A DNA stretch of 63,628 bases, filler included, from Jimgerdemannia flammicorona (lineage: Eukaryota), in NCBI GenBank assembly GCA_003990765.1. It is 2 parts of 2 records of this genome, joined end to end, with 100 filler letters (N's around TTAATTAATTAA, not from the genome) between each part and the next. Parts side by side here need not be neighbours in the genome. Positions count along the whole stretch, not along the records: positions 1 to 31,764 come from RBNJ01000380.1; 1 more part is not named here. One strand, 5' to 3'. This document shows positions 1,346 through 45,481 of the stretch, piece after piece (the stretch's first letter is position 1; every line of letters begins with the position of its first letter). The position numbers and the translations under genes are program-made. A model generated the notes under the pieces. It saw nothing but the letters and a program-made list of their open reading frames with translations, ran no database searches and was not told the origin of the DNA.

Positions 1346-1399
1346 ACATAACCTTTGGAAGGTACTTACAACATCATTTTTGGAGAAAAGAGACTAACA

Positions 1400-3402
1400 A
1401 CATAGCGACTGACAGACAATCTGAGGTATGTACTGGGCAGGGCAGCCCAAGCACTTTCGAATGGCAGTAGGTAGAGAGAGGCCTGGACCTGGGGGGGGGT
1501 ATGAGGGGGCTGCTGGCAGGAGGATGTGGAAGAGGTGGAGGTATTGGTAGCAGACAAGGGTCTGGGAGAGCAAGCTTTGTGGAGACAGTGAAGGGGAGGC
1601 AGCAGGCATCAGGACTGGAGGGCTGGCTGAGGAGGGGTAAGGAGACTGAGAAGGTGGTGGTGTATGAGGGAGTAGCTCTTGGAAGAGGGAGCAGTGGAGC
1701 TGAGGGAGTAGTGGCTGGGGGGAGTGTGACTGCTGATGGCAACAGGACTGCTAATCTGAAAAAAAATCTAGATGTGATGGCTGTTGGCGAGGCTGAGTAG
1801 CTGAGGCTTGGAAGACAAGGGGATTTGGCAGATGGTGTGATAGGCCTGGCAGTGGCCCCATTACTCAAAAAATTTATCTTGGCATTTATGGTCACACTGT
1901 ACTTCTGGGGCTTAGTGGTGATGACAAAAATGGTGCTGGGGCTTATTGCTAAGCAGGTGGCAGAAGCTGCGTCAGTGAAGTTTTTGAAGGGACTGAAGGG
2001 TGTAGAGGTGGGTTTCGAGAAGGCTGAGCTGCTGGAGGAGGTACTGAAGGTTGGGTTAGTGGTTGGGGAGGTGTGTATTCTGATGGCAAGGTGCCTGAAA
2101 TGGGATCTGAGGGTAGTCCAACTGCTGGTGAAAGGAGTGTCCACAGTGATGGTGATAGAGACAAGAAAGAGAGTTGAGAATGTCATGGCAGAGTATGGCA
2201 AGGTGGTGGATATAGAATTTAGGGTCTGGGAAGGAATCTCACTCAGGACTGGGGATGTGGATGTAAGGATTCGGCTGGCTGGAAAAGAAGCTACTAGGAA
2301 GGCAAAGAACTGGCCTTCAGTGATGGTCTGGGGAGTAATCTTATGTAAGGTGATGAGGGTAAAAGGGAGTGAAGAGGAGGAAGAGGATTTATTGGAAGTG
2401 CTGGAAGAATTGGATGGTGCTGTAGAGCAGCGAGCAAAGGCTTGAAAGGCTTTCATGGAGTCGACACACCTGGAGGTAGTGAATGGAAAGAGGATTCAAG
2501 TGGACAAGGTGTAGTGGGAAAGAGCTCAGGGATATAAGAGACAGAAGAATCTGTTGGCTAAACTGGAGAGCAGACCACAAGAGGATGTGAGTAAGATAAC
2601 AGGTGTGGCAGGGGCCAAAGTAAGTGTCTGGGCTGGCAAGAGGAGTGGGAATGCTGGAGAGGAGAAAGGGAAGGCAAAGGAGGTGAAGATTATTGACCCA
2701 TATGCTGATGGCACCTTAGAGGTTTGGGATGAGGTCTGGGAGGATTCCCCCACTCCTTCTCCTCTTATCAGGTAAGGCCCAGCTTCCAGAAACAAGATGG
2801 TAGAGGACATGACAATGCTGGGGACCCATTGGGTGAAATTTGGCATTCCAGAGGTAATGAATGGGGGACATGTGGTGGTGGCCGGGGAGGAGAAACTGGT
2901 GGATGTCCTGGAGGTGTGGGATGAGGCTGCAAGTACTAGAGCTGACACCACAATGTTGGATAGAGGGAGGCTGGTAATCCCTGGAGGGAAGGAGGTGGGG
3001 AACCTACTTTGGATGTATAGGATGATGAATAATCTGGTGGCAGAAGAGTTGGGGGAGGTGGACTTGCAAGTGATGAGTGATGAACACTGGATGCAGATAT
3101 TACAGGGGGATGGAGTAATGATGGCACTGAAGGCAGAAATTCTCGTGGTGTATCTGGAGGAGGAAGGGTATGAGGTGGACAAGGAGTGGGAGGCAGAGAT
3201 GGCAGTTGTCACTAGGGAGAGGGCTGAGTACTGTTGGAACAAGTGTCATAGATTGCAGCTTTGGCAGGAGGCCTGCATTGAGTACCAGGAGGAGTTTGAG
3301 GAGAAGGCAGATAGGGAGATGAATGAGCTGTTGGCTGGATTGGAGGCTCAGAGGGCTGAAGAGGAGGAGGTGATGGCAGAACATAATCTGAACACAGTAT
3401 AG
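1400..3402 (+). pseudogene. LINE ORF1 (RRM-like region VMAEYGKVVDIEFRVWEGISLRTGDV), disrupted by stop codons
   Basis: ORF-track pieces 1501-1800, 1825-2445, 2554-2775 and 2797-3402 share one frame and lie directly upstream of ORF2. Start position uncertain. Confidence 0.7.
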
Positions 3403-6402
3403 GAGGAGATGAGCATGGAGTAGTAGAGTTCAACTGATAACAAATCATATTTCATTATGAACAGTATAACCAACATTCTTTCTTTGAATGTGAATAGGCT
3501 ACAGGGCACTGTTAGATGTAGGAACATTTTTATTTAGCTGAAGGGATTGGAGGCTGATCTCTTCCTCTTGCAGGATGTCAGGTGTGAAAATGACTCTGAT
3601 AGGATGGAATGGACAAAGGAATGGAGTGGCATGGTGATTTGGAATGGCAAGGTCAGGATTCTGGTTTGGAAAGACAGAGGGGAGATAAGAGATGTGAGGA
3701 GCTGGGGGGAGAGACTGGTCTGGGGTGAATGGATTTATGCAGGCTGGGAGCCAGTTATAGTTGGCTCCTATTACTGCCCTGCCATAAGGGGGGAGTATGT
3801 AGATTGGGTGAAGGGTCTCCAGGAGAGTGAGACCCTTGCAGAAGCTGGGGTAGATGTGCTTGGGGGAGATTTCAATATGGTTTGGGATATACAGTTGGAT
3901 AGAACTGATGGCAGATGGGGTGCTGAGAGCAGGAGTAGGGGGCTGGTGATGTGGGAGGAAGTCGAAGACTAGGAGCACTGGTAGATGCTAGTAGGGAGTA
4001 CTGGGGGGATAGAAGGATATATACACATTGGGCTGGAGGCCTGGGGACAAGGATTGACTGGACTCTGACAGCCAACTATTGGGGCTGAGATGTTTGGAAG
4101 TCACTGGAGATAGAATGGTGTCCATGGTCAGATCACTGGGGCCTTTTGGGACAGGGGTGCTTTGGGGGAAGTAGGGATGGGCCTGGACATTGGCGCCTAA
4201 ATTCCTTCTTATTAGATGATGAGTCCTAGTGAGAGGAGTAGACTAAAGACATTCAGCTGAGGGTGGAGAATTAGCAGCAGGAAGGTGCCTCAATTGGGGT
4301 TTGGTGGATGAGGATGAAAGAGATGGCCAGGATGTACTGGAGTGAGGCTGGCAAGGAGACAGGGAAGTAGCAAAGACAGAGAGTGCACTGGGCTTCTACT
4401 AGATTGGCTAGGCTTCTGGAGGAGTGGGTGAGACTGACGAAGGTGGAGAGAGAGGAAGATTGGAGAGTAATGAGGGTAAAGACAGAGGTTGGAGAACTAC
4501 AACAGGTGCTGCAGGAAGAGGAAGAGGTAAGGGTGCAAAGCTTGATAGCACAGCTTCGTTGGCAGAGACTAGAGGAAGGGGAGAGGCACTCCAAGTTTCT
4601 CATGAGGACCCTTAGGGTGAGAAGGATACAGCAATGGTGGGAAGGGGTACTTGACTCAGATGGTATACTAGTGTATGGTATACAGGATATTCTTGGATCA
4701 CTGAAGGAGCAATGGAGTGGATTGTAGAGTGAGGAGGAGAGTGGGGCAGATGCTACTGCCATTGACTGAACTTTGGAAAATTGGCACCCATTATAAGTTG
4801 AGGGACTAGGTGACCTAGTGATGCCTGTAAAGGAGGATGAGATCCACCAGGTTCTTGCCATAACAGCCTCAGGTATAGTACCTGGGGAGAATGGCCTACC
4901 CTGGGACTTCTGGAAGTAAATGGTTGGAGTCCCAGATATGATAGAAGAGGTGATGGTATTGTGTGACTCTATATTGCAGACAGGGAGATAGGTGGGGGAG
5001 CAGGATCTTAGGCTGGTGATGCTGCTTTACAAGAACAAAGGAAGGTAAGAGGATTGGAAGAACTGGCAGCCAATAATGTTGTTAGATATGAACAGAAAGT
5101 TGGTGACTAAGGTGGTGGTTGTGAGGCTACAGAAGATAGTCCAGCAAGTTATAGGTATTGAGCAGAGGGGATTTGTGGGTGGTCAGCTCATTAGAGATGG
5201 CATAGCCTGGGTATATGGAGTTATTGAAGGGGCTAGAGCCTGTGGACTGGATGGGTGACTAGTCTTCTTGGACTAGGAGAAGGCTTATAACTGGGTGTGA
5301 TGAGTCTGGCTGGTGAAAGTCTTGGATAGAATGGTGGTTCTGATCCAATTTCAGTCAGCAATGGTCAGCCTACTGGAAAGAAGTAGGGCTGTACTCATGT
5401 ATAATAGGTATAGAGGGGTAGTATTCCCTCTGGGTAGAGGGGTGCCCCAGGGGGGCCCACTATCCCCCATCTTATATACTCTTTCCCTAGAACCCCTAAT
5501 GGACAGAATTAGACAGAGGATTGTGGGGCTCTCTATCTATGCTATTGGGTGGAAAGTTGGGGCCTTTGCAGATGATATGGTGGTTGGTCTGAGATCGATT
5601 GCTGATGTCGAGGAGCTCAAAAAGACAGTGGAGTGGTATGAGGAGAACTCTGGAGTGAAGCTGAATTGGCATAAGTGTGAAACAATGATGCTAGGCAATG
5701 GCCTGGTAGGAGGAGACATCATAGGAACAATTGTCCCCACCAGTGAGGCAGTGCAGTACTTGGACATCTATTTGTCAGTCTATGGGTCAGTTCTGCCTAG
5801 GCTTTGGTGGGAGCAGTGAATTGGAATTTGGGAGGAGGACCTGCAGAGTTGGGGGGGAAGATATTTCTCTCTGGCAGGACGGATTTTGATTTTAAATATA
5901 TATTGGCTGCTGAAACTGTGGTATTTGGCTTATCATCTGGACTTCCCAGCCTAGGTGGTGAAGAGATTGGTGAAGGTAGCCAAGGGATGGATCTGGGCTG
6001 GCAGATAGAGTCAGATTGGTTGGGAGATCTTGTCCCTACTAGTGGCAAGAGGTAGTCTTGGGATGGTGGACTTTCCCAAATAACTACACTGCTTGAGGGT
6101 ATGGTGGCTTAAGAGGGCAGTGGAGTTGCAAGAAGGGGGGTTGGGTTCTCCTGATACAAAAGGTCTGAGAGTGGTGGTCATCACTGAGAGGCTCAACTGG
6201 TGATCTTCTCTCATTGGTTGAACTTCAGAACACTGCACAATTGTGATATAAAGGTTTCTGGTGGGGGATAGTAAAGGGGGCACACCACATTGGTATTCGC
6301 TGGCAGGGGAATGAGGGAGAGGAGGCTTGGGACCTGGTGATGTAGAGATGGGAAGGCATTCTACTGAGTGGTGTGCCTTTACTTGAGTTCAATATTGGTG
6401 AT

Positions 6403-8470
6403 TGTAAGAGGGTTGCTTTTTTATAGTAACCATTACATAGTTCTGGAAGAGTTCTCTGAAAGTTCTGGATGTTCTGGAAGACTGTTTTCTTATGGTCAAG
6501 ATCAATTTCATATGGAGTACGTCCTCTATGCTTATTGATTTCAAGATTGGGTTGACATCTCAACCAAAGTCCTTTTTTTGGACTAGTTCTGGATGTTCAG
6601 GATTTTCCATATTTCAGGAAGTTCAAGAAACTAAGACCAGCTTAGTTGAATTGGCATATCACTACAGACAACACCTAATTAGGAAATTTCATGATGGGGT
6701 TAGGAGTGGGACCTAATGGGAGCGGATTTACTTAAGAGTGGTTTGTGGATTATTAAATAGATTTATTTGTTATTCATGATATTGCTATACTAGAAGTTGT
6801 TGTATGAGGGGATATTTGTGGGGAAGTGTTCAGGAATGTTCTTGTGTGTTTGAGTCTGAGATTCTGAGGACTGGGGGAGGGAGTATTTATACTAATGAGG
6901 GGCTATCTGGACTATACTAGATATGGATATAGCACTAAGTACTTTGCTGAGTTAGAATACAGTCACGTAGTATAAGTGTGATCTGACATATCAAGAGATC
7001 GTCTGACTGCTGAGTCAGTTCACAGTTACATCATATAATACTAATCTAACTATACTATGACTGCTAGGCTATTTATGGGTTTAGACACTGTCTGGGTAGT
7101 TCTCGATAATATCACTATCAATTGCATCATCTCTGATGAAGTAGTCATCTAGGAAGAGTGGTTTGTGGATTACTTCTCCTTGTTCACTGAGATAATAATA
7201 TATTGGAACTTCATCACCATCCCACAGAATAGTATTGTCTGTCTCATATGCTGGATAAGGTGTTGGTGGGCAAAGGAGGGATACATCATCTTTGCTTTCA
7301 TCAGATTTACTGTCTGCATACCTTCTGTAGGTTATAGCACTATGAGTCATGGGGTTGTAGTAAGCTGGTGGCTGTGGTTTATATTGTTCATACTTGGGTG
7401 GTGGAGTGGTTGGTTCAATCTCAAGGGTTGTCTGGAGGTACAGGTTGTGTTCTCCAGTCTCTTCATTATAGTTGAAGTAATTAGGGGTGAACACAGGTTA
7501 GTATTCATACTAGTGGTCATTGTCCCAATAAGTCTCGTATACTGTTATGAATTGTTGTAAGTTTATTGACAAGGTTGATGGTATGATCAGGGTTGGCAGA
7601 GATCCTTGACTAGAGATCATGTCAGCATCAGAGGGATCATTGTCTTCTGCTTCATCTTCATCAAAGTAGATTATATCATAGATATTCTTCATGGTACATA
7701 TATCCAACTTGGGGCATTTGCAGGATATGATCATTGGGGTGTGGGAAGGTTCTGTCTGTGGTTTTGATATACTTGAGGTACTTGTGGTTGAGTTCTTGTA
7801 TCATGTTGTCGATTTGGCCATAGGATAGAGTAGCAACCATTTCAGCTATGGTAACTCAGAGGCAGAGAATAATGATGCTATACTCATAGAAGAGTTCTCA
7901 ATGTTTGCGGGCAATGAGCTTCTGGTGTTGAGACATCTGGGTGATGTTTATATTATAGTGGTGTTCAATCATGTCTTCTAGAAGGTAACCGATCTGGTAG
8001 TAGCTTGAGATTTGTCCGATTCAGTGGGCCTCGCTAAGCATATTCAGAGCATTCCATCAGGCTTCTACAAAGTAGAGGGGTGCTAGATTATGGATATTCA
8101 TGAGGGGCAGAGGGGGTGTGGCTCAGTTGACAATGGCATTCCAAATGTCAGTGCAGATACGGGTATAGATCTCAGTGGTCATGTTTGTATGTTTGGAAGT
8201 TGTAGTTATTGTTTGTTTTGGTTCTCTGATTCAATGCATCTTGGTGCTCAGTATATATGCATTTGATCATGATTGGTAAGATTCCATTTATGTAAATCTT
8301 ATATTCTGTGACTTTGTATTAACTCAGCTTTATGTGCTGTGACTTTGGTTTGACTCAGCTTCATGATCAAGCAGGTGATTTCCAGATTTGTTCAGAGGTC
8401 GCATGTGATTTCAGTGGCTTGTTCAGAGGGTGATGTGTAATTTCGGTGGCTTGGAGGTTGTGCGCTTACA
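6403..8470 (-). mobile_element. Solo LTR, family S copy 1 (2068 bp), carrying an internal ORF
   Basis: Termini TGTAAG...CTTACA with 5-bp TSD GTGAT (6398-6402/8471-8475). Reverse complement of 27383-29416. Confidence 0.88.
7081..8182 (-). pseudogene. LTR-encoded protein of family S (~365 codons ancestrally; MTTEIYTRICTDIWNAIV...DSDIIENYPDSV)
   Basis: ATG at 8182. Internal stops are consistent with C>T changes, and a 4-bp insertion near 7700 is absent from copy 2, where the frame continues across that site. Confidence 0.65.
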
Positions 8471-9954
8471 GTGATAGAATAGAATGCCAAAGGGGACCAG
8501 GACAGGATCTGTGGCCTTGCAGTTGGCAAGGTGTTGGAATTGGAAAAGAGTGGGACTGGTATGGTGTTTGGATCTGGAGTGCTATAGTGCAAAAGTAGAT
8601 GCCGCTGAAGTACTGGGTGGTCTGGTGGTACATGCTGAGGAGGAATATAATGCTCAACTTCCACTCAGAGTACCTTATCATAGGGGGTTGCTTCGACTAT
8701 AAGGAGTGCCATAATATAGGGTAGGAAGGGGGCTTTGTACAGATGTCAGAACATTGGCTAGGAGAGTGTGAGGTATTGGGAGACTTTTGGCAGGTCATCA
8801 GAGACCACTTGGGGGTGAGGTATAGGAGAGATGAAGTACAGAAAAGATGGGAGGACTTGAGGGATCGATTGGTAGGAGGGGTAGGAAAGGAGTGGATTAC
8901 CTTAGGTTGGGTGTTACATATAAATAGACTACCATGGAGAATTAAAAGACATTATATATAAATTGCTCAAGTAAAGAATACTATTATCTAACCTTTAATA
9001 ATATTTATATAAATACTATCTATTATAAACAAACTACCTGCCTATCATATAAATGCTAATGATATATTAATACTGTCTATTGTAAATAAATCTCCCATCT
9101 GTCATATAAATGCTACTTGACTTTTAATGATATATAAATACTACTCATCATAAACAAACCACCTGCCTGATATATGAACAGACTGCTGTTATCCACTACT
9201 TTTGAATATACAACCTATCCTGTAATATATAATTTGTTACCATCTGACTTTTAAAAGATATAACCTACTCCAAAGTCTGTACTCAATGAGTCTGGAAGAT
9301 ATCTTGCAATATACAATTTATCATCACTTGACTTTTAGAAGAAGCTATCACTAGAACTATTATCATCTGACTTTTGATAACATATATACTACTATTTAAA
9401 TTAATTATTTAAAGACTTTATTGGGATCTTGAAAAATATTCTGATAACTACTTGGATATAATATTATAAACAAGTATATAGGGAGAACAAATATATAAAC
9501 ATTATAATATAGAAATTTGAATAGATATTTTAATATCAAAATAATCTATTTAAAAAGAAGATATAATATATAGTATAAAATAAAAATAAGAATCAAGAGA
9601 ATAGACATTTAATTATAGTATAGAAATTATCTTTACTATAGATACTATATCTAAAACATTATTAGTAAAACTATTACTTTTATAAATTTCAGATAGGATT
9701 TTACATAAGATTCTATCTGAGATATAAATGGAATTCTACTGAGAATTTTACATAAAAAGACTTAATACTTAGCTATATATTTAGTAGCAGAATTAGTATA
9801 TAAATCTATATAAATAACCTAGTATTTTAGAGTAAATAAACCTCAGTTAGTCAGTAGAGTCAGTTTAGCTTAGTTATATATCCTTCTCTCTCCTTTATAT
9901 GAAATCCAAAATCTTACCAACTTACTAAGATCCATATCTATTATATTATAATAT

Positions 9955-11130
9955 ATATATAATTATCTGCTTTATAGTATATAAAGCTATTGTTAAGAAG
10001 ATATTTATCAATTTTTCTATTTTATAAATAAGCAACTTACTTATTACTATATAATCCTCTATATAGTTTACATATATACTAGATCATCATTCTAGCTATT
10101 ATATTCTTGTAACTGATAAATATATAGCTCTAAATCTATATTACTATTGAGAAAAGCCATTTTTATATCTATCTGATAGATTTCCTGATTGTATATAATA
10201 TCAATTATAAAAAGTATTCTTAGTAAAGTAAGCTTGAATACTGATAAAAATGGCTCATTATAGTCTATATTATAATCTTATAAATAATTCTTAATAATGA
10301 AATAAGCTTCAAATCACTCTATATTACTATCACTCTTGTGCTTGATTTTATAGACCTAATATAATTCTATAGTTTATTAATTGATCAGAAGAAATACTAG
10401 ATCTCATATACTATTCTTAATAAGTGAATTATATTCTTCATTTATGACTTATTTCTATTTCTTATTATCAGAAGATATTATCACTTTATCATATGCTTAA
10501 CTTGTTAGAAGTCACAATAAATATATATTTATATATCTTAGTATAGCTCATATAGTCTTTATAATATTATCTGAAGTTTACTGATATATTTTAATAATTT
10601 TTTAATTTAGAATAAGTTTTGTTTCTAGGTATATGCTTTGGCTTTTCCTTACTTTTAATAGACCTTTTATCATCATCAGAAGTCTTACTATTCTTAATCT
10701 CTATTATTCTTAGCTTAGACAACTCTGGCTCAAGTATATATATATAGTAATTAAATTTATTAAAGAGGTTGACACCAGTTGCTACTTTTGTATTAGCTGA
10801 GATATAGAGATCAAAGTAGAGATCAGAATAGATTTATCTATATAAATCTCCTTATTATTTTCTTTTTCATTAAACCATATATTTTATAAGATTATTATAT
10901 AATATTTATATAGATCTTAGAGTTGATATATCTTATCAGAATACTTAAGAAATATATGCTTGTTGACTTTTAACTTGAACTTATACTAATTGATATTACT
11001 CTTATTAAGAATATATATATATATCATATCTGTATATATATAGATATAATATATCAGACTTAGCTCCAGTCTATAATTTCTCAGGAGTTAGATCATCATC
11101 TCTAAAATACTTATTATTACTAGATTTTTT
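9955..11130 (-). pseudogene. Ty1/copia pol relic (post-integrase region plus RT)
   Basis: Minus translation with transition damage: LTPEKL*TGAKSDI, EEYNSLIKNSI*DLV, *VYKIKHKSDSNIE*FEAY, IDYNEPF, IYQIDIKMAFLNS (from the HQMDVKTAFLNG motif). Confidence 0.8.
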
Positions 11131-11221: not shown

Positions 11222-14200
11222 GGGTATGTCTAAACACTCAACTAATTTTTATAAATCATAATATTTAAGCCATCTGATTTTTATAGTTCTAAATGTTTTG
11301 ATTAGCATAACTTTGTTCTGAGTTATAGTAATTAGTAATTGATTATCAGTAATTTTATATCTATAAGCAGTTTTACATATTCTTTCTATCTATCTCTCAT
11401 CTATACTCTATCTTTATATTCTCTATATCCTCCTCTATTTATCCTCCCAATGACACTCTAATCTCAAATATTGACTGCTAGAAGTTCTTTGAAATAGAGA
11501 AGCCATTTAGTCTTCCTAAAGATAAATTTGAAAAAAATAAAGTAAAGTCAACAATATGTATCTGAGCTCAGCTGGATAATACCAAAATATTGAAGAAAGT
11601 TCCTCAAAGATAGACCAAGATCTACTACTACAGATTTAAAAAGCAATGAGATATAATTATCTTCTGAAGAGCTCTAGCTACTATTAGAGAAAAAAAAGAA
11701 AATCAAGCAAATATAATGTAGATCTCTGCCAAGCTCAGATAACTATTACACTCAAGTATAATATTATCATAGTTTACAAAATAACTTCTAGTGATCTCAA
11801 TTATACTTATGATCTTAGTACAAGTGATATTTGTAAAACATCAAGTATAATTATCAAGTTTGTTGAAGCCAAGACCTCCAAAGACTACTATATACCTGTT
11901 ATTCATAGAGTAACAATATAATAGTTTGAAGAGAAAGAGATAAATATTGGATTCTTAATAACAAAACAAATTCTCAATATATAATATAAGATTCATAGAG
12001 GATTGAATGTATCTTTTATTAGAAATAAGGATATATCTGAAGATTTGAAGATAATACTGAATTAGCTTATATCAAATAATTATTAAACAGAAGGTTTTGG
12101 CAACTCTGAATATCAAGAATTTACTTTTGTAAAAAAAATCAATATTCAAATTCTTCACAAAATAGTATACTTATTATCATAAACTCAATATATAAAACTA
12201 ACAAATATAGATAGAAACTCTATACCTTATTAATGTATAATATATTTAGTTCTTAACTATCTGGTGGACATTTTTTTTGTCAGTAGTAAAGAATATAGAA
12301 TTATTGCCCAAGGTTTTCAAATTCTCAAATGCTGAGCAAATATTTAAAAATTATGATATTTTCTTATTAATTAGTCTACTATTGAAGAAAATGCTATCAA
12401 AAATACTTTTCTTGAAATAATAGCTGGCAATCAAAATATAAATATATATTACTATTCCTAATATTGTCAGCAGATCTTAGAATAGCAACTTTCAAGTTAT
12501 GATAAGATATATGATCTAATACTTCAGGAAATATACAAGACTATATATATAGGATGTGAAAACTTAATTGACAAGACTATTGAGAAAGCACCACTTGATA
12601 ATAAAAAGACTTATATTCATTAATACTGGTATAACAATACAGAGAAATAGAGTATATAGAGCTGATAGTATTCTTTCTTCTTATTATAAATAACTTTGAT
12701 AAGCTCAGTTGAATCCTATCATACTAATATAAAACAAAAAGAAAATATAAGCTTTAGATTAATTGGTATATGTAGAATAGTTTATAAGATAAATAATAGA
12801 TATTTTTATTATATACAAATTATAGAACAAAATTTTATATAAAGAAGTTAATATCAGAGGCATCAATATACTCATTCATCATTAAATTTCTACACTCAAT
12901 TTAACTTCTTCTTATCAGAGAGATTAATGCATTCCATGAACATATTATGAAGAGAAAACTGATTTCTGAATACCAAGTAGCAGAATATAATTACCAGTTT
13001 TTCTACAAGTATATGCTATTATATCAACATCTCTTTCACTATAATCTCTCTAGCAATTTCTTGATAGACAATCATTGGCAATCCTTTCAGAATATGTTTG
13101 ATGAGTCTGGAATAGATATTAATGTAAGTTATATATATGAGCAGATAAAAATACAAGAGAATCTACAGCAGGTAGAAGCAGAGAAGTGATGGATGAAATT
13201 TTATATAATAATAGAATAAGTCTGAGAGTATTGATTTGAGGTTGAGAGTAGATGGCAAAATGGAACCATTGAGGTTGAAGTTCTTAAAGATATTATTTAG
13301 CAAATTCATAATATTATAATGAATTGTATTCTATAGTAAAGTGTTTTTTTGTTATATATTTTTAAGTTATATATATAAAAACAATATAATAAATTTAGTA
13401 TATAAGTATAATTATAAAGTTACTTATGGCCAAATTCAGGGCAGATTAGTCACTAATAAATCTGCCACTACTTCCTCATACTAACTACTGATCTCTATTT
13501 TTAAGATTCAGTACTATCAGCCACTTCATCAGCTCTAACTCCTCCACTACTACTATCATTATGGTCATCTCTATGACTGCAACTAATATATCTACATCTA
13601 GGTCTATTATAGTCAGTAATTTCTATATCACTGGTATAGTTGTCTTAGTTATCTTAATCAATATGACTATCATAGTGGAGAACTCAATCATCATAGCAGC
13701 TAGACTGCTCTTGCTCTATGTGGGTGGTTGTGAGAGTAGGGGCTATATGACAGTACTCTGTCAGGAATACTGAGATCTCTAGCAGTCTTGAGCCAAGTGA
13801 TCTTGTTCTTGCTAGAGTTAGTGTAGAGAATCAGTAATATTTTTTTAAGAATAAGAACTTTAACCAAATGTTCTCTGACTACTGAGAATGATGAGAAAAA
13901 AAGTAGCAGAATGTTGATATTATGTAGTGAGTCAATGTAGAATTATTTATTATAGACATTATGATTACTTTGCTCTCACTTTTTCTACTTCACTAAGCTC
14001 TAATTCACTTCTATTTAACATCTTCTCTCTATAAAAACTCTATATCTAATGACATAATTAGAAGTACATATACTCACATTCTCTCTTTGGCTTAAATATC
14101 CTCATAGCAATATACTTAAATATCAGAGGTGGGTACAGTAATTAAAATTTCTTCTCCTTATTTATATGTTATTTATTTTTAGTTATACAATAAATAAATC

Positions 14201-15086
14201 ACTAAGTAGTAGTATATATATATGTATGTACTATGGAGGCATTGGTGTCCTCAGATAGAAAGAATATAAGATTATTATGAGTTACAATATAGTAACTAGG
14301 TGAAGAAGCTAGAGCTTGCATTTCTAGTGGAAGAATTGGTTAATTGATATACTTTATCATTACTAGTTCTCCATTCTCCACTAACCCCTCCTCCTCTCTC
14401 CTCTCCCTATCATCCAAATATATAAGAAAAATAACAGAATTTAAGAAACTCTAATTATTAGTTTCATCCACAATATATACTCTAGACTGATGTATAATCA
14501 AGTTAACCATCTTTATTATTTCCACTGACCTCTCAAACTCAACTACTTTATCTATCTTTGATACTACTTTTATCTATATCTGTTCTGCTTCTATACTTAC
14601 TGATATATATCTTAGAGATAGTATAGAGGATGAGTTCTGGGATACCAGGTCTGATGATATCATACTTATAAAAGACAATATAGACAATTTCATTACTAGA
14701 ACCCTGGACTGCACCTCAATAGATGTCTCTCAGCAGAGGTCTCTGCATGAGCCTCAGCAAAGACTTCAGCAGAGTCCTCAGTAAGAGTCTGTTCTGACTC
14801 AGAGTTCGGATTTAGCCATAGCTCTGAGTACTAATAGAAGTGAGAGCTTTGGGGGTCTGTATTTAGTATGAATAATGATGTAGAGGTAGATGTGTAGAGA
14901 CTAAGGAGATTTCAGAAGTCAGAGTAATGAGTGACTAGATGGAAGATGGGTTGGGAGACCTCTTCTGTGCCTGAGTTACTAGGATAGAAGTATATAAGGA
15001 TAATTATATTAATACCTACATATGGTGAGTTATGCTAACAAAAACATTTAGAACTATAAAAATTGATTGAGTATTTAGATATACTC
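11222..15086 (+). mobile_element. Mutator/MULE DNA transposon (~3.9 kb)
   Basis: Long TIRs 11222-11312 and 15028-15086 (GGGTATGTCTAAACACTCAACTAATTTTT / AAAAATTGATTGAGTATTTAGATATACTC). 8-10-bp TSD, CCAAATATAG versus CTAAATATAG. The empty-site sequence is visible in the related LTR at ~44245-44265. Confidence 0.85.
11450..13300 (+). pseudogene. MULE transposase with SWIM zinc finger (degenerate)
   Basis: With transitions mentally reverted: DSTHKTNKYGWKLYTL, YFLIDQSAIEENAI, YCxWH, SSVESYH, and SWIM CNCQFFxKYMLPCQHLFH (ORF track 12947-13189). Boundaries approximate. Confidence 0.75.
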
Positions 15087-18000
15087 TAAATATAGTATAG
15101 TCTTACAAATAGTAGTTATTTTACAAATGTTAAAGTTTTGACAAATGTTAACATTTTCACAAATATTGAGATTTTATAGATATTAAAGATCTAACAGATG
15201 TCAAGAATTAATACTTATACAAAGTAACTTACAAGAAATATAGTCATAACTTAGCTACCTTATAGCTAGCAAACTTATATAAATATCTCCAGTATCTAGA
15301 GTAAATAAACCTCAGGTCAAAAGTATTTGAGCCTCACTCTGGTAGTCTGAAAATGAGATCAGACAGATACTACTGGTAACTCTGAGAAGTCAAGAAAAGT
15401 TATAGAAATCTACTGCATTTCTCTAATTATATACCCACTATATTATAATTTAGTACCTATTGACTAGTAATTTAAGATGAATCCCTCACTTTCAAGCTAA
15501 ACAATAAACAACTGCTATCACCCAAACAACTATACAAATTAAACTAAGATATCTAGACAAGATAGATATAAGACTACCAGTATTTTATAAATATACTTCA
15601 GATGAATTAATTATTATCTTTATTGATGATTTTGAGCAATATGTTGCTATAAGAACCCTGATAGCAAGGTAGCAAGTAGCTCTCATGCTCTTTAGTCTCT
15701 GAGGCCCAGCAAGAGCAGCATTCACAGCTATAATCTATATGGGAAATAATAATAATGCTGTACTGACAGCATAGAAGACCTGGCTTAGAGCTATCTACTA
15801 TATAGATAAGATCAAAAAAGCTCTGAAGAATCAGCTCAATATAATATACTAAGAAATAAGTAAGAATTCAAATACATTTTATACCAGAATTTGATATTAG
15901 GTAATTCTTGCAGATTATAATACTAATATCTAAGATCAAGTAGCCAAGACAACCTTTATAAAGAGAGTCTACTCAGAAATAGTTATGGTCATCCACTCAT
16001 CATTAGTACTTGGACCTAGTATAGAAGGTCACCTATGTCCAGCAATACTGAATAGCCAGATATCTACAAGACTATACAATAGAAAGAGTCAAATCAAAAC
16101 ACTCAAAGCAACTAGTATAATCTCTATCATAGTGATCAATCAAAACACACCTCAACAAAGAGCTACTGAGCAGTAAAGAAATAGTGACTCTATGGAGGAA
16201 CTAGCTAAGAAGTTAGCTGAAATAACTACTCACTTAGAAGATATGGTAAAGGAAATCAGAGGAAGAGATTGTTATCTAGTTCAGAAGTTTGTCACTATCT
16301 CAGATAAGAAGAGAGGTACCTACTGTACTTGTGGAGAAGAAGGCTATTACTCATATGAATATATGAGTGATATCAAGTATAAGATATAGCCAAGTAATAT
16401 TATTTAGAATAGAGAATAGTATCTTTGAAGAAATTAGAGAATTTGATAAAGAAGAATGAGAGACCTACTCTGTATAGACCATCAAAAAGGATGTTTATAA
16501 GGAACTCTACAAGAGACTACTAGAGAGACCCAAGAAGAACCCAGTAGAGAAATAGATAGAAACTGCTATAGAGAGCCAAGCTGAAGAAATAGATCAAGAT
16601 ATAGAGCTTGAGTAAGTAGTTTAAGATATTATCTGAGAAACTACTCTAGTCTTAGCCAGTGAAGGAGAAAAGAAAAAGAAGCTTTATAAAACTAAGATCT
16701 TCAAGTATGATATCTTCAAGGACCTTAGCCAACAAAAGGTCAATGCAACCTTTGGCTAGCTAGCAGAAATCTCCACATTTAGACAGCAAATGAGATATGG
16801 ACTTGCTGAGACAACTAAGGAGTAAGATTGGAAGATAACTGAGGCTAACAATATTCAAAAAGACTCAGGAGAAGAAAGTGAAGATAACTACAAGATCTCT
16901 ACCTATGTAATCTGTCAAATTGAGAATAGAATCTTTAAGGCCATCATTGATACTGAAGCAGGAGGATGCCTCTTCAGCAAGAAAGCAACAGACTGCCTAG
17001 GTTGGGAGATTGAAGAAGCAACCAAGTTAGTATTTGTTACAGCAGATAGAATAAGAGCCACATCTCTGAAAAAGATCCAAGATGTTCCTATTAAGTTTGT
17101 AGAAATAACTATCTTAGTAGATATCATTATAATTAATACAACTAACTATAATATCCTTATCAGCAACCAATGGCTTCATAAAGCCAGAGTAATAATTGAC
17201 CTGAATGCTCAGAAGATGCAGATTATCTAAGAACAGAAGATACAAATTTCTGTCAATATCAATAAAGGAGTACTCACTGAAATAAAGAAAGAAGAAAGTA
17301 AGCAAGATGAGACTTATATAGTAACTATTCAGAAAAAGAAGAAGAAAGTTGGATAGATCAGTGAAGAAGACTGATATATATAAGAGAATTATTAAAGAAT
17401 ATACACTATAAGAAGTCTGCTCCTATAGAATTAAGATATACTATATAGAGCATGTCAATGATTGCTACTAGTATACTAGTGGAATCAAGAAGATTTATCA
17501 TAAAAGAAGACAGAAGGCCCTTGGGAAACAGACAAGAGAAGAGAAGGAGGAGAAAGAGGATAATGAACCACCAGCTCTTCTAGAAGACAGTAATGATAAA
17601 GAGAAGATCAAGGTTAATATTTGGAAAGTTCACCCTAATGTAGTCCTACATACCAGAATACAAGTCAGAGAATATAGCTAGAATAGATATTACTATAGTA
17701 GAAGAAGCTGTACTCAAGTTCCAGACAACTATCCTACTTACAACTAGTCTAGAGATAACTATTCCAAAAGACTATATCAGAATTCTCAAGACAAAAAGTA
17801 GTCTAGCCAAGAGTGAGATTACTATCAAAGAAGGAGTCATCAATTTGAATTATATCAGAGAAATACTGCTCATTGTCAGGAATCACAATTCTACAATTCC
17901 ATTTCTAATCAAGAAGAAGAACTAACTAGTGCAGATATTAATCTTCTCAGTTCTTTAGCCAAAGATTATAGAAGTTAAGAAGTTGGAGGAAATAGAGAGA

Positions 18001-18778: not shown

Positions 18779-19677
18779 ATGGGGCACATCACATCAGTAT
18801 TCATTGGCAGGGAGATGAGAGAGGAAGACCTTGGGGTCCAGCAATGTAGAGATAGGACCAGGTGTTGCTGGGGAGTACTCTTCTTGGTGACTTTGATATT
18901 AGTAATGGGGTTGAATGCCAGAGGGGGTTGGAGCAGGATCTGTGGCCCAGCAGATAGCAGTTAGTGGGTGTTGGTGAAGAGTGAGACTGACAGAATCTGG
19001 AACTGGAGTACTGAAATTTGGCAATGGTTGCTATCAAAGTATTGGATAGTCTGGTGGTACATATTATGAAGGAATATCATACTCAATTTTCACTCTGGCC
19101 ACCTGGTGGAAGGGGGAACTCTTGACTGTGAGGAGTACTATAATGTTAGACAGGAAGGGGGTTTTGTATAGATATCTGAACATTGGCTAGGGGAGTATAA
19201 GGTGCTCAGTAACTTCTAGATAGCAATTGAAAAGAGATTGGGTATCATGTGGAGGGGAGATAATATGAGGGGTCATTGGGAGGATTTGCAGGATAGACTG
19301 GTGGGAGGAGTTGGGAAGGAATGGCTCACTTTAGAGTGGGTGCTGACTGTATGAGTAGGGCTGGCAGAACACTGGCTATATGTGTTTGAGGATGAGAAAT
19401 ATCTGGACTAGAGGAATGATTGTTATGATAGGAAGGACTGATAGAGGATACTCTGATGGGTTGGTGGCATGGGTGGAGACTGTAGAGTGGTCAGCAGTGT
19501 TATTTGATAGAGAAGATATACAGACAGAGTGGGGGAAGAGTGGGAGTTGTGGGAGATAGAGTGATTTTTAAGTATAAAGGGGTGGAGGGAGGGGGGGATT
19601 CCTCTATGAGAATTAGATAGTAGGAGGAGATAATGTAAATGTATGTATAGACTGTAATAAATGGCTAAGTCTGAGTG

Positions 19678-19726
<49 letters not shown>
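18779..19726 (+). mobile_element. 5'-truncated L1/Tx1-like LINE 3' end with poly(A) tail
   Basis: Homologous to 8475-8912 (EHWLGEY; DRLVGGVGKEWLTL). A44 run at 19683-19726. Confidence 0.9.
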
Positions 19727-19731
<5 letters not shown>

Positions 19732-22700
19732 TAAAGCAAAATGTTCAGAATTTTGAGAACTTTATCTTCATTACTATTATCAAGACTAGAGGTTGGGATA
19801 TCTTTGAAGGAGATAAGATCAGTAAATGTTTCTGTAAGCATCACATCTATTTTGCATTTTGCATATATATATTAATTAGCAGGATGATGTTATCACTAAT
19901 GATGTCATTATATTTAGTAATGGTAAGAGGAGTAAGGAGATTAGAGGCTCTCCAATCTATGACATTTTTCTTCACAAAGTAGGGGATAAAGATGGAATCT
20001 TGAGAGAGTCTAATCTGGATACTGGGGTCTTAGAATATTGATCTAGATTATTCTAGAGAATGAGATTCTAGAACTCTTCTATTTATCACTTTTGAGAGTA
20101 ATGATAAATTGGACTTCTGTGGCCACCATGGCCTCTAGTATATATATCTATATAGTGAGCTAATAATTTCTTGAAGTTTGAGACTCTAGTATACTTTAAG
20201 TTGGAGATTGATCAAAGTACATATCTAAAGACCTGATGGATCTTTTTGACTACTTTCAATTTATATATATCTATAGAGGTATTATTTTGTATCTCTTAGA
20301 GGCTGATCTGAGAGAATTCCCAGTAGAGGTTTCTTATTTCATATATATTTCTGCCACATCCAGAGGCATTCAGTAGTAGTAGTAATCCTTGTCTCTATTT
20401 CATAATGGTAGAGAGTAAAGTGGTAAGGGTCATCAGTACCCAGATTGAGACTAGGAATCCTTCTAGTATAGGTTCTTATGACTCTTCTGATGTCTTGGAA
20501 CATCCTTTCTTGGACTGAGAAGTCTTGGTAGTTTCTTGACCTTACAGTTTGGCAAGTAGTAGGCATTTTATTTATAGTTAGTTTTTCAAACTATTTCAGG
20601 ATTTTGTAAGTCTTGTTTGAGTTACTACTATTGCAGTTTCCTGGTCTTTCTTTTATATTCCTTAAGATATATATCTTGTAGTTATCATGATTCATAATTG
20701 GTCATTATTACTCATCTTATAGCCTAGATAAGTCATACTATATAATCTCTAATCTAGTAACTTATAAGAAAAGACTGTCTCCTGTGATAATATCACTATT
20801 CTGAGATCACTATTACATATTCCTCCTGAATAAGGATCTTCTCTTGAATATCCTTATTCATTGATCTAGTTTGAAAAATTTTCTAATCTTATAACCTCTG
20901 ATAGGGGGTCAAAAAGTAGTATTTATAGACTGGTATCTTCCTTATGTATTTTGGCATAATGGTAAAGAGTAGCTCTCTTTATATAGAGCAAGGGCCTGAT
21001 TCTAATCTTGATTAATCAATTGATGATTTAAACTTCTCTGACTTCAAAAGTCTTATAGATGAGTAGTTACTAGTACCATATCTCTTATAAAATAGTCCAG
21101 ACAGATTGCCTACTAGTTACAAGATATGCTGTTATAATTTACAAACTAGAACCTTATGAGTGGTTATTATATTTTACTTCTCTTATATAGGTTCATGGTA
21201 CTTCTTGAGTTTGTTTCTATATACCATAGTAGGCAGTATAGTCCCTGAGAGTTTTTTAAGCCAGAAGATAGTTCTCTTGATATCTTGTACATAAAAGGGT
21301 CCTTTTCATTTGGGCTCCAGTTTTCATGACCATAAGGTTTCTACTATATTTGATATAGTAGAATATTTTCTCCAATTTGAATAGGTTTTAGGGTCTTGTG
21401 ATTCTTTTCTGCATTCTTTCTTATTAGTACTTGTGACTTGATGATGTAATCTTCTGCCTTCTTTCTGATTTAGTATAGTCTCCAGATTTCTGAGTCAATC
21501 TGTTACTAAGTTAGGTAGCTGAGATTCCATCAGAATCTTCTTCTCTAAAGAGCAGTTCTCTTAGAGTAAAGTATGTACTTTATAATCATATGTCTTATAA
21601 GATAGAGAGGACAGTTGGAAGGTAGTTATCTCAATTCTCATATGTGTCTGAGATCTTAGCCAAGATGTTCTTAAGGGTCTTGTTTATTCTTTCTCTCTGT
21701 CTATTTTCTTGAGAGTAATATATAATAGTCTTAATATGCTGAATCTTGTATTTCTAATATATTATCTCATAAAATCTGTTGACAAATTCTGTACCATAGT
21801 CTGTGGTGATTTGTCTTGGTATCTTGTAGTGACAGATGATTTCTCAGTACAGGAAGTTAGCAATAGAGAGAGTATTGGCTTCTTGTAATGCTCCTACTTC
21901 TATCTATTTGGTAAAGAGATCTATAATAACTATAATATAGTAGTTTCCTGATAAAGTTACTGATAGTAATTTAATGATATTTATTGTGATGTGGTGGAAG
22001 GAGATAGATTCAATTCTTGATAATCTAGATACCTGGTCTTACTGATCTTATTTCTGTTTTTAGCACTTATTACATCCTTTGACAAATTAGTACAAGTCTT
22101 CTTCCATCTTAGGCCACCATATAGTTCTTTTTGTCTTGTTATATATATTGATTTCTTCTAGGTATCCTTGTTTATGTACTTTCTTCATTACTTGATACTT
22201 CTTATATTTGAGTATGATGAGCTTTCCTTCTTTTCTGAGTATGGTGTTATTTAGTTCAAATTGTTTCTAAGTCTAGTTGATGATAGTGATAGTCCAGAGT
22301 TTGAGATAGTTGGACATCTTCTACTGCCCAAGGTAGCTGATTAATTTATAGTATAGCTTCTTATTCATATTGAATAGTCTTGATGAGGGTATTTTGGGAT
22401 ATTCTTGAAAGTATATCAGCATTAGCATTAGTTCTTTCTGAGTGGTATTTGATAGTACAGTTATACTCTTATAGTCTGTAGATCTATGTATCTGATATAT
22501 ATTCCTTTGGGGTTCAGAGTGTGAAATAGCTAGGTGAGAGCAGAATGGTCTGTTTGAATAGTAAAGTATTTCCTAGCTAGATAGTAGTGGAACTTATCTA
22601 CTGTCCAGACTACTGCTAACCATTCAAGCTTGTATGACTTATAGTTTTGTTCTGCTCTATAGATACCTCAGCTTATATAAGAGATGATATATTTATATCT

Positions 22701-25700
22701 ATCTTTCTTATGAGCTAGTACTGCTCCAAGTCATATAGTACTTGCATCTATCTATATGATAAACTCTAGGTTCCAATCTGGTCTTTTAAGGATGAGTGCT
22801 TGGGTCAATCTGGTCTTGAGTTTATTGAAGGTTTCTTGATATTTCTTGTTCTATTTGAATTTGATCTTCTTCTTCAGTAGCTCATAGATAGATGTTGTAA
22901 TATTGGAGTATCTTTTGATAAATCTTCTATAGTAAGAGACTAGTCTAAGAAAGGTATGAACTTCTATAGTTGTTTTGGATCTTGGGTAGACTGTGATAGC
23001 CTCAATATTTATAGGATATGTATGAATTCTAGTCTAATTGATAATGTGTCCTAGGTAGGTATTTTCTTGAGCTACAAACTTATACTTTTTGAACTTAATG
23101 TAGAGGTCATACTCCTTGAGCCTCTTGAGGACTAGTTGTATATAGTTGACATATTTCTATATAGTATTGCTAAAGATGATTATATTATCAACATAGATAA
23201 AGAGTCATTTTCTAATTTCATTACTGAAGACTCTATTCATTATTTGCTAAAAATCTTACTAGGGTATTACATATTCTAAATAGTATTTGTAGGTAGATAT
23301 AAGTGGTATTAGATATGATGAAGGCTAATTTCTCACTGATATCTTTAGTGAGACTAATCTGATGGAAGCCTGAGAACAGATCCAAGGTGGTGTAGTATTT
23401 GGCTTTGCTTCTAAGGGTGGTAAGAATTTCTTGAATATTTGGCAAAGGCTGTCTATCCTTTTTGGTAATTGTATTGAGCTTTCTGTAATCAATACAGAGT
23501 CTTGGGGCAAACTCTCCAGGCTTACTTCTTTTCTTTAGAGTAAGGACAATGGGTGAAGTCCAAGAGTTGATAGCTTATTTGATGATACTAGCTTCTTCTA
23601 TTTCCTTGAGTTCTGCTCACAGTCATTCTCTGTAGGCAGATGGTATGGGTCTGGCTTTCTGATAGATGGACTTAGTATCACTAGTATCAACTTTGTGGTA
23701 GTACTTGGGTTCTTGATTGTGGATGTCACTGAAGTCTATAGTGAGTACTTCTTTATTCTAATATAGGATCTTGAGAAGTTGTTCTTCTAGGGAAAACTTT
23801 TCTCCAATGATATATATATACTTTTTCTAGTTTTTGTCTTTCTTGTACTCTAGTTTAGTAATCTTGATAACAGTATAAGCTCCTCTTTTAGTAGATTTAA
23901 AGTTTTGTTCTTCTTTCTTAGTCTTGATAAGTTCAATGGCTTCAGTAATCTTAGGCTTCTTAACTTTATGGATCAGTATCTGACCAATTCTGTCATACTT
24001 CTTAACTTCAAATGGGGTAGTAGAGTTGTAATTTCTAACTATAAAAAAGATCTCACCAGTGTAATTAGAATCAATGACTTCTTTTTCAACTGAGATTTTG
24101 CTCTTAGCCAGACTGCTCCTGGTCTTGATAATTCTAGTATGGTTCTCTAGTAACTTAACTCTAATTCCAGTACTAAGTAGAGTAGTGGTCTGTGGTTCAA
24201 GGATAGTATCTTGGATGCTGACAAGGTCCATTCCTATAGCTCCTTCAGTCTTATATTCTAGGATCTTGGCTTCTTCTTAACCTTAAGAGTAATGTCTGGT
24301 TCTTATTCCTCTTTATCATTACTATTAGCTGAAGCTCTAGGGGCTGATCATCTTCTTTGGCTTTCTTTTTTGCTTCAGCTACTTCTTGCTTATGCCTTTA
24401 TTGACAGATCTTTCTAACTTCACTAATATAGGACCAGTAGTCATTTAGATGTTCAGAGTAGTATATTCTAGCACTATAGAGGCATCTTCCTTAAGGAGTA
24501 TAGCTATTGATGATCTTGTTATACCACTGCTCATCTGTGAGCTTAGTTGTCTTGCTCTTATTTTTATATATCAAGTATATGAAGACTTCTGTATTTTCTT
24601 CATCTCCTTCCTCTATATCTGGTAGTACTTCTTTGTGGACATTAATAGAGACTCATATCTTTCTTCCTCTATAGTTGATTTATATCTTCTGAGCATTGAG
24701 ATCAATGATAGTCTTAGCCTTATAAAGCCATTGATTATTAATGAGGATATTATAGTTGGTGGTACTCATAATGATTATACATATCTACTGGGATGGTAGC
24801 TCCTCTAATCTTGATAGAGACTTCTCAGATCTTGCCTAGGGGAGTAGCTCATATACTATCTACTGTGACATAGACTATTTTGGTAGATTCTTTAATATCT
24901 CAGCTTAGGTAGTTAATTGTCTTCTTTCTTATGAGATATCCTCCAGCACTAGTATCAATAATAGCATCAAAGATACAATCTTCAATCTGATATTGGATAT
25001 AGGCTGAGGTCTTGTACTGATCTTCAGATTCTTTACCTAAGTCTTCTTGTTCATCTTCTTATGCATTGTGAGCTTCTATGATCTTGTACTCTTAGTTCTT
25101 AATAGTGGTTATAAGTCTTGCTCTCAACTGCTGTCTGAAGGCAAAGACTTCTGCTAGTTGTCCAAAAGTAGTATTGATATTCTATTTCTTAAGGTCCTTA
25201 TAGATATCATACTGGTAGACCTTGGTCCTATACAGCTTCTATTCTTTCTTACTTTCACTTTTACCTGAGACTGGAGTAATGTCTTCAATAATTTGGCAGA
25301 CAGCTTTATCTAACTCTATGTCTTGATCAATTACCTCAGATTGGGTCTTACTTTGAATAGTAATGATTGGAGTCTTTTTTGATCTTCTAACTAGCTTACT
25401 GTTGCTCTTTTTATTATAGGGCTTGGACTGAGTTGTGGTATATATCTTCAGTAACAGAGTAGAATTCAGACTCCTTATAGTATTTTTTATTATCAGTATT
25501 ACCAATCTCCTCAATAACTACTATATTGGTTTGTTCTCTAGTTCTAGTAACATCACTTAGTTAGGCTCTATACCTTGTTTTAGTTATATAATTCTTTATA
25601 TAGTGGCCTTCTTCTCTATATTTGAAGTATATATATGATAGTATATTCCTCTATAGTAGCTACAAACTTCTACACTAGTCTCTTGTTGGCACTTCATACT

Positions 25701-28700: not shown

Positions 28701-29557
28701 ATTGATAGTGATATTATCAAAAACTATCTAGATAGTATTTAAATCTATAGATAGCTTAGCAGTCATTAGTATAGTTAGATTAGTCTTATATAACATGACT
28801 GCCAACTAACTCAGCAGTCAGATGATCTCTTGATATATCAGTTCACACTTATACTATAAACTGTATTCTGACTCAGTAAGACACTAAGTACTACATTCAT
28901 ATTTAGCCTAGTCTAGATAGCCTCTCATTAGTATAAATACCCCCTCCCCCAGACCTCAGAATCTTAGACTCAAATAGATAAGAACCATTTTGAACACTTT
29001 CCCACAATATCCCTTTACACAACTACTCCTAGTATAACAATATCATAAATAGCAAATAAATCTATTTAATAACCCACAAATTACTTTTAAGTAAATCTAC
29101 TCCCTATTAGGTCCTACTCCTAACTCTGTTATGAAATTTTCTAATTGAATATTGTCTGCAGCAATATGCCAATTCAATTAAGCTGGTCTTAGTTTCTTGA
29201 ACTTTCTGAAATACAGAAAATCCTGAATATCTAGAATAAGTCTGAAAAAGAACTTTAGTTGAGATGTCAATCCAATTGAAATCAATAAGTATAGAGAATA
29301 TACTCTATACAAAATTGATCTTGACCTTAAGAAAACAGTCTTTCAGAATATTCAGAACTTCCAGAAAACTCTTCCAGAACTACATAATGGTTACCTTAAT
29401 AAGTAACCCTCTTATATATATGGTGGGCTGATAATTCCTTGAAGTCTGAGACTTTGGTATACTCTAAGTTGAGAATTGACCAAAGTATATATCTGAAGAT
29501 CTGATAGCTCTTTTTGGCTACTCTCAATTTACATATATCTATAGAGATATTATCTTG
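19727..29557 (-). mobile_element. Ty3/gypsy element G3 (same family as G1), both LTRs truncated, 5' LTR interrupted by solo LTR S2
   Basis: 3' LTR 19727-20817, PPT 20818-20827, internal region 20818-26515 colinear with G1 (gag, PR, dUTPase 23827-24231, RT, RH, IN), PBS 26495-26515, 5' LTR 26516-29557. Confidence 0.9.
27383..29416 (+). mobile_element. Solo LTR, family S copy 2, with degenerate ORF 27646-28742
   Basis: Termini TATAAG...CTTATA (mutated TGTAAG/CTTACA), 5-bp TSD TATAT (27378-27382/29417-29421), colinear with the reverse complement of 6403-8470. Confidence 0.88.

Positions 29558-29582
<25 letters not shown>
29558..29582. repeat. (TA)n microsatellite at the G3 LTR/LINE junction
   Basis: Direct reading of the sequence. 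Confidence 0.9.
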
Positions 29583-30958: not shown

Positions 30959-30992
30959 TAGTGCATCGCAACCTGAGCCGACCCGTGTACAT

Positions 30993-31240
30993 ATTTAACC
31001 CGACCCGGAATTATACGTCACCCGTCTTTAACCCGACCCGGAATTATACATCACCCATCTTTAACCCGACCCGGAATAATACGTCACCCATCTTTAACCC
31101 GACCCGGAATAATACGTCACCCGTCTTTAACCCGACCCGGAATTATACGTCACCCATCTTTAACCCGACCTGGAAACGTACATCACCCGTCTTTAACCCG
31201 ACCCGGAATTATACGTAACCCGTCTTTAACCCAACCCGAG
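30993..31240 (+). repeat. 33-bp tandem array (~7 copies), CpG-intact
   Basis: Unit TTTAACCCGACCCGGAATTATACGTCACCCGTC. Confidence 0.95.
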
Positions 31241-31764: not shown

Positions 31765-31864
31765 NNNNNNNNNNNNNNNNNNNNNNNNNNNNNNNNNNNN
31801 NNNNNNNNTTAATTAATTAANNNNNNNNNNNNNNNNNNNNNNNNNNNNNNNNNNNNNNNNNNNN
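31765..31864. other. Assembly gap with artificial TTAATTAATTAA spacer (31809-31820)
   Basis: 44 N + 12-mer with stops in all six frames + 44 N. Confidence 0.95.

Positions 31865-45443: not shown

Positions 45444-45481
<38 letters not shown>

Follow-up and report, generated by a model that had tools for sequence, protein, structure and literature searches.

A 63,628-nucleotide stretch of the genome of Jimgerdemannia flammicorona (assembly GCA_003990765.1), composed of two records joined end to end and hereafter called the window, contains two families of long terminal repeats (LTRs), designated S and G, each of which probably bears its own real protein gene situated wholly inside the LTR, the copies in the window being dead and intact relatives existing elsewhere. 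The original prediction, made from the sequence alone, had proposed open reading frames (ORFs) encoded by the LTRs of both families and a protein motif shared between them. The first proposal held, since both frames lie inside LTRs with TG..CA ends and have intact relatives outside the window; the second stood only in part, the motif being a weak resemblance that the sequences available do not separate from chance.

LTR families S and G and their reading frames

Family G was represented by a full element at positions 35270-43979, whose two LTRs were 87.9% identical and which was flanked by a 4-bp target site duplication (TSD), CTAT, at 35266-35269 and 43980-43983. The purine tract GGAGGAAGA was located before the 3' LTR, and the domains on the plus strand followed the order zf-CCHC, dUTPase, RVT_1, RT_RNaseH(_2), Integrase_H2C2 and rve, which is that of the Ty3/gypsy elements (Metaviridae). 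A protease (PR) domain was detected only in a related element (16826-17227), not in G. The G-type features were as follows:

35270-36792, plus strand: 5' LTR of the G element, 1523 bp, with the ends TGTAATGG..CATGACA
36793-42457, plus strand: internal part of Ty3/gypsy type, with gag including zf-CCHC, dUTPase (38767-39438), RVT_1, RNase H and Integrase_H2C2 plus rve
42458-43979, plus strand: 3' LTR of the G element, the second direct copy flanking gag-pol
35512-36324, plus strand: ORF of the 5' LTR, 270 codons, with 4 stops
42699-43511, plus strand: ORF of the 3' LTR, starting with MPATHQ, with 1 stop, covered by RNA contigs
33404-34851, plus strand: Ga, a G-type LTR that has diverged to 76% identity with copy Gb, with an ORF remnant at 33552-34367
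19724-27382, minus strand: reverse G copy with 80.3% identity across 6965 bp, the S2 repeat interrupting its 5' LTR
19734-20566 and 26937-27389, continuing at 29417-29560, minus strand: ORF pieces of the reverse G copy, from a scan with the family hidden Markov model (HMM)

The G ORF ran from position 243 to position 1055 of the 1523-bp LTR in either copy, was encoded on the gag-pol strand and had in-frame stops upstream. Its first motif block read YEIENLL at 35731-35751 and YEIRNLL at 42918-42938, and the second, AKKIHQ, began at 35827 and 43014 after a spacer of 25 residues; a third copy of the motif, YKIENLL, was present at 33771-33791. The sequence after Ga (34852-35185) was an inverted fragment resembling the LTR-end/gag-start of a third Ty3-like element (79.5% identical to 15406-15738), and because this fragment adjoins it, Ga is part of a rearranged remnant rather than a clean solo LTR.

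Both copies of family S were solo LTRs, which shared 81.1% identity across 2028 bp, and the window contained no internal part of an S element:

6403-8470, minus strand: S1, a solo LTR of 2068 bp with TGTAAG..CTTACA ends, sitting within a LINE-like (long interspersed nuclear element) sequence
27383-29416, plus strand: S2, a second solo LTR with the 5-bp TSD TATAT, inserted in the reverse G copy, within its 5' LTR
7084-8182, minus strand: decayed S ORF (approximately 363 codons) that begins with MTTEIY, ends with ENYPDSV and has its stop at 7081-7083
7802-7999, minus strand: S motif, with block 1 (YQIGYLL) at 7979-7999, block 2 (ARKH*ELF...DNM) at 7802-7912 and a spacer of 22 residues
27646-28739, plus strand: ORF remnant of S2, in the same frame as the S1 ORF

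The S ORF covered positions 289-1387 of the 2068-bp LTR, wholly inside its TG..CA ends. In S1 it was damaged by 7 in-frame stops (5 of them TGA within the first 161 codons) and by one frameshift near 7699; since the frameshifts of S1 and S2 sit at different places, the ancestral S evidently had a single frame of about 363 codons. The S1 repeat was flanked by the 5-bp TSD GTGAT (6398-6402 and 8471-8475), so that the TSD lengths of 5 bp in S (both copies) and 4 bp in G were as originally described, and the same was true of the motif peptides, their positions and both spacers. The absence of DNA similarity between the two LTRs was also borne out, the score of their 5' parts being matched by 89% of 500 shuffles.

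Relatives, decay, expression and products of the frames

A search of public proteins with the G ORF recovered 5 intact relatives (E 4e-111 to 1.5e-35, identity 62-75%) and a profile search 6; one of them, P0005, has 271 residues starting with MPAARQ, the same start and length as the G ORF. A HMMER scan of 1.84 billion representative proteins with the S profile gave 5 matches at E<=0.001, including two true relatives, P0010 (128 amino acids, N-terminal part, E 1.3e-64) and P0011 (247 amino acids, C-terminal part, E 6.4e-17). The other three were rejected as promiscuous repeat proteins matching many unrelated Pfam families, and a word-based search with the S N-terminal part produced none at E<=0.01 among 226 candidates. 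The residues which the original prediction had restored from mutational damage were correct: P0010 reads ARKHRELFYEY...RLRATT, with R where S1 has TGA stops, while P0004, P0005 and P0006 contain the intact YEIGNLL.

The S and G ORFs are real genes, apparently undescribed until now. Open frames of 215-271 and 247 codons persisted at 62-79% protein identity, start and stop agreed between the window copies and P0005 and P0010, and the S1/S2 transversions in the S C-terminal part numbered 1, 1 and 15 at the first, second and third codon positions (p 1e-5). Together with the sense codons found in expressed copies at the stops of the window copies (see below), this makes it very improbable that the ORFs have no function as element genes, being instead pieces taken from the host or frames open by chance, with database relatives that are other decaying copies. 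Such an origin would fit the tiny size of the family (6 G and 2 S relatives), the source of all the relatives in short metagenome-type contigs of 720-2375 bp (JGI/IMG or ENA), the lack of a known domain and the missing codon-position signal in G.

The C>T/G>A damage assumed in the original prediction is real, since 315 of the 371 differences between S1 and S2 were transitions. The repeat half of the window (1 to approximately 45,000) consisted of nested repeats with a CpG observed/expected ratio of 0.12, against 1.01 in the gene half with its GC-rich spliced host genes (from approximately 45,300; CpG computed over 46000-63628). The decay looks like the pattern typical of repeat-directed CpG hypermutation, and it is by such CpG-directed C>T/G>A mutation of repeats that the window copies would have been inactivated. 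Within copies the damage was strand-biased (TpG 200 vs CpA 129 in S1; TpG 530 vs CpA 251 in the LINE).

This organism transcribes G-type copies. RNA contigs from two runs belonging to two studies of this organism, X1 and X2, were compared over window positions 31865-51864; they skipped 12 intron-like GT..AG or CT..AC segments in host genes and are therefore RNA-derived. Contig coverage of the G LTR, the ORF included (e.g., 42765-43168), set in at about position 14 and continued through the LTR end, and the contigs carried intact codons in place of damaged ones, namely AGA>GGA at 42927 (the G of YEIGNLL), TAA>CAA at 42966, TGA>TGG at 33797 and TTG>TCA at 43053-43055, all four in agreement with the intact G relatives. 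Contig depth, a poor measure of RNA level, was 541-1328 in the LTR bins of X1, 0-1 over gag-pol (37201-40535) and 34-101 in host genes. On the G LTR stretches 35867-37200 and 42537-44537 the X1 depth ranged from 370 to 1330, and at both ends of the G LTR contigs continued into sequence of a different kind, with loose ends located at 36793, 42472 and 43987.

The gene may form a transcription unit contained in the LTR, or else be expressed, in the manner of retroviral sag or nef, as the 3'-most frame on the element's RNA. A transcription unit inside each LTR is suggested by a TATAAA word at G LTR position 156, 87 bp ahead of the ORF and conserved in copies Gb and Gc, and by a TATATA word in S1, 75 bp ahead of the S ORF ATG. 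The same words, together with the coverage of the G LTR by RNA contigs, would also suit a start site just upstream of the ORF, in which case the ORF would not be a U3 (unique 3') accessory gene but would come first on the element's RNA, within an R/U5 (repeat/unique 5') leader of great length, as ORF0 does in plant Tat/Retrosat2 elements. This arrangement is unlikely: R would need about 1 kb, which is unusual, TATA-like words turn up often in decayed sequence of high AT content, more TATA and AATAAA words are present 3' of the G ORF (LTR positions 1165-1310), and the contigs reveal no RNA starts or ends.

No Pfam family was found for P0005, P0010 or P0011 at E<=0.01. Searches against PDB sequence profiles gave no matches for G and none at E<=0.1 for S (best E 0.4), Foldseek with the low-confidence S model returned only generic helical bundles (E>=1.9), and the ESM Atlas, queried with P0005, yielded nothing usable (best feature score 0.83, TM <=0.33). 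As originally supposed, neither protein has a named domain, and neither is env-like or chromo-like. The isoelectric point was 4.1-4.5 for P0005 (G) and P0011 (the S C-terminal part) and 6.3 for P0010 (the S N-terminal part); the maximum 19-residue Kyte-Doolittle value of 0.57-0.97 indicated no membrane or hydrophobic segment in either protein. The first 60 residues of G had a net charge of +8, the C-terminal stretches of both proteins were acidic and rich in aromatic residues and proline, and the N-terminal 125-145 residues, approximately, were predicted to be all-helical in both low-confidence models. Such a product might be a regulator whose helical head (basic in G) binds nucleic acid or protein and whose acidic tail is of the activation type, and it would act in trans on the expression or silencing of its own element. 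Judged from composition, as is the transactivator or anti-silencing role put forward originally, this trans-acting role of an accessory protein made from the LTR is the likeliest one for the product and yet a doubtful proposition.

Several observations weigh against an LTR-borne gene in each family as read above. The proposed function has its basis in composition, and the structure models obtained with AlphaFold2 were poor (predicted local distance difference test, pLDDT, 33.4 for G and 53.2 for S). In G, the transversions between subfamilies had no third-position bias (14, 10, 11 and 14, 11, 14 by codon position). Both S copies are solo LTRs, which give no orientation of the S ORF relative to its element. 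The contrast in depth between LTR and gag-pol was seen in X1 only and was not clear in X2, and the contigs are silent on RNA strand, start, end and level. Finally, scans of metagenome DNA (with P0010 and the G alignment) and of viral contigs (with P0011 and the G alignment) retrieved no locus around any relative.

Weak resemblance between the S and G proteins

The peptides and the register on which the original prediction had based a motif shared by S and G exist, but the gapless second block was not above chance, and only a longer alignment of the intact relatives was marginally significant. Against the S sequence, block 2 had 9 of 37 identities and a BLOSUM62 score of 13 with the window copy Gb, and 6 of 37 identities and a score of 0 with the intact P0005, both scores being below the mean best 37-residue score of 17.6 over 300 shuffles. 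Two of the residues aligned in that prediction were decay products: YQIGYLL of S was originally YQIGRLL, and both families formerly had P in place of the L in I-L-x-L, so that I-P-x-L is what the intact S and G forms have in common. The profile-profile comparison was not significant with these shallow profiles (hhalign probability 0.16-0.4%, P 0.13-0.38; 41 of 200 column-shuffled S profiles scored as well, and the reversed profile reached 15.4 vs 16.3), an outcome which the original prediction had itself named as telling against a common family.

The intact relatives could be aligned collinearly in the register originally described, the alignment starting close to the N-terminus of each protein and extending for some 115 residues. 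By BLASTP, P0010 matched P0004 with an E of 0.008 and 12 of 43 identities, including YQIGRLL/YEIGNLL. Among the 21 S-G pairs of relatives only two reached 0.008, with G proteins (P0004 and P0015) falling in one 90% cluster, and the remaining 19 had E>=0.02 (P0010 vs P0005, E 27; vs P0006, E 22); between the window copies E was 2.7. The Smith-Waterman score of P0010 with P0004 was reached by 21 of 5000 shuffles with BLOSUM62, 6 of 5000 with BLOSUM50, 0 and 3 of 5000 with BLOSUM45 and 80 of 5000 with PAM250. With P0005 the corresponding values were 6 of 1000 (BLOSUM45) and p 0.043 (BLOSUM62, 2000 shuffles), and with P0006 24 of 1000, the shuffle p over all tests ranging from <0.001 to 0.06. Block shuffles gave 0.010-0.015, reversed sequences scored 40 vs 71, and the best of 27 real decoy ORFs scored 52. 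The score of P0010 on the G profile was reached by 15 of 2000 shuffles when all rows were used and by 78 of 2000 with intact rows only.

The S-G signal is thus reproducible but marginal. A common origin of the S and G ORFs, as remote homologues in one fast-evolving accessory family common to two lineages of LTR retrotransposons, is a serious possibility that nevertheless falls short of being probable. Apart from the BLASTP and shuffle results with the intact relatives and the shared I-P-x-L, it is favored by the helix/loop agreement of the two models, which was best at offsets 15-17 of 144, near the sequence register of 12-15 (predicted helices peaked 1-3 residues away from the register originally described), and by the start of the ORF at 243-289 bp into the LTR in both families. 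It is opposed by the hhalign outcome, by the confinement of the best BLASTP pairs to a single G cluster, by the weaker result with the intact-row profile and by the low confidence of both models. Furthermore, the family HMMs run over the six-frame translated window recognized only their own copies, with no S/G cross-hit at E<=10, and no G protein was found by the S profile among the 1.84 billion proteins. The S C-terminal part was at chance against G (297-561 of 1000 shuffles), and the most conserved G block lacked a significant S counterpart, all 46 invariant G columns being located in residues 142-251, outside the aligned part. A stronger version is quite improbable: in it, S and G would descend remotely from a single regulator that is carried in LTRs and evolves fast, either a transactivator of the Tas/Tax kind or an antagonist of silencing, made from a promoter in every LTR, solo ones included.

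A further candidate word common to both proteins, P-x-F-..-YF-[IV]-x-[DE]-..-ID (S at 7105-7160, minus strand, in the conserved C-terminus; G at 36088-36150, in the block of highest conservation), was rejected: it forms the best whole-protein Smith-Waterman alignment, and 462 of 1000 shuffles were as good. The third Ty3-like element, whose LTR lies at 12800-15460, gave in that LTR a best match to the G profile with an independent E-value of 0.11 (14629-14706), which was unusable.

Known systems and other features of the window

A conserved protein gene wholly inside an LTR is known as a trait of complex retroviruses such as MMTV, the mouse mammary tumor virus. Sag of MMTV is a type II membrane glycoprotein, in contrast to the S and G proteins, which lack a hydrophobic segment and have neither a Pfam match nor sequence similarity to it. 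HIV (human immunodeficiency virus) nef and foamy virus tas/bel are 3' accessory genes which start in the internal region and overlap the unique 3' region (U3) of the LTR, and the Tas protein, which is acidic, transactivates the LTR of its own virus. The S and G ORFs would resemble these genes in the 3' end location overlapping U3, and Tas could serve as a model for their proposed role; they differ in lying wholly inside the LTR (with in-frame stops upstream in G) and show no sequence or fold match to them. By position, the nearest analogue would be MMTV sag, an ORF in U3 of the betaretrovirus LTR (e.g., PMC2118998). As in MMTV, the G gene is contained entirely in the LTR in the sense orientation and is thus present in both LTRs, U3 and R being unassigned in G, but the carrier here is a fungal Ty3/gypsy element without env.

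In kind, the nearest analogues are the fast-evolving extra ORFs of plant Retrosat2-type and rotifer elements. Both are lineage-restricted and of unknown role: ORF0 of rice Retrosat2, RIRE3 and RIRE8, with a similarity of about 10% where pol has about 60% (PMC3485330), and ORF3 of bdelloid rotifers, which occurs in types with recognizable domains (GDSL, DEDDy, env; PMC5408684); some types of extra ORFs are common to different element families, and their evolution is much faster than that of pol (PMC3485330, PMC5408684). As described there, ORF0 and ORF3 sit outside the LTRs, in the stretch separating an LTR from gag or in that separating pol from the 3' LTR, whereas the S and G ORFs are inside the LTR boundaries. 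Env-like ORF3 proteins have a signal peptide or transmembrane segments and follow pol, in contrast to the S and G proteins with neither a hydrophobic segment nor a Pfam env family.

Basidiomycete Ty3/gypsy elements with a dUTPase between PR and RT (reverse transcriptase), such as PosPlaTy3-5, are described in the accessible text of PMC2864245, and the G element is similar to the latter in having gag-CCHC, a dUTPase before RT, RNase H and integrase. That text describes no LTR-borne ORF, and a figure legend in it mentions an 'add. ORF' of unknown function. The U3 variation of the crapaud LTR (PMC10787394) concerns short LTRs without an ORF and was set aside as not relevant. The literature search as a whole brought up no LTR-borne ORF described in any fungal Ty3/gypsy element, the literature on LTR ORFs found being mostly on MMTV. 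What is new here is therefore apparently the LTR-borne genes, extra ORFs in LTR elements being already known.

Should the ORFs have an effect in trans, any LTR might be a working gene, including the many solo LTRs usually deemed dead remnants, and this would alter both the annotation of LTR remnants and the view of element-host conflict in fungi with repeat-directed mutation. If, moreover, the two ORFs encoded a shared regulator, no 'complex' Ty3/gypsy retrotransposons would have been described in fungi before these, and their solo LTRs would act as free-standing genes. The S and G proteins, belonging to no family, represent unexplored sequence space.

The host is a fungus, its genes in the window being spliced, of fungal type and including one Ytp1-like and one Sec5-like gene. 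Apart from families S and G, the following features were annotated:

45349-51392: host genes, the Sec5-like one on the minus strand and another on the plus strand from about 50300, with introns of 81-157 bases confirmed by spliced RNA contigs in both runs
1374-6402 and 8476-8961, plus strand: LINE-like element split by S1, with RVT_1 at 5304-5816 and a GC skew of +0.4 to +0.5

LINE-related 3' fragments were also present at 18913-19342 and 30055-30232. All three Ty3-like elements had a dUTPase domain before RT (G, 38767-39438, plus strand; reverse G copy, 23830-24276, minus strand; third element, 17644-17922, plus strand), the third of them being 65%-related and truncated at about 18750. A heavily decayed copia-type RT remnant was recognized by eye at 10092-10277 (minus strand) where the window is richest in A and T (GC 24%). 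Two 44-base N runs (31765-31808 and 31821-31864) were flanked by a 33-bp tandem repeat array at 30928-31271 and its inverted copy at 33122-33342.

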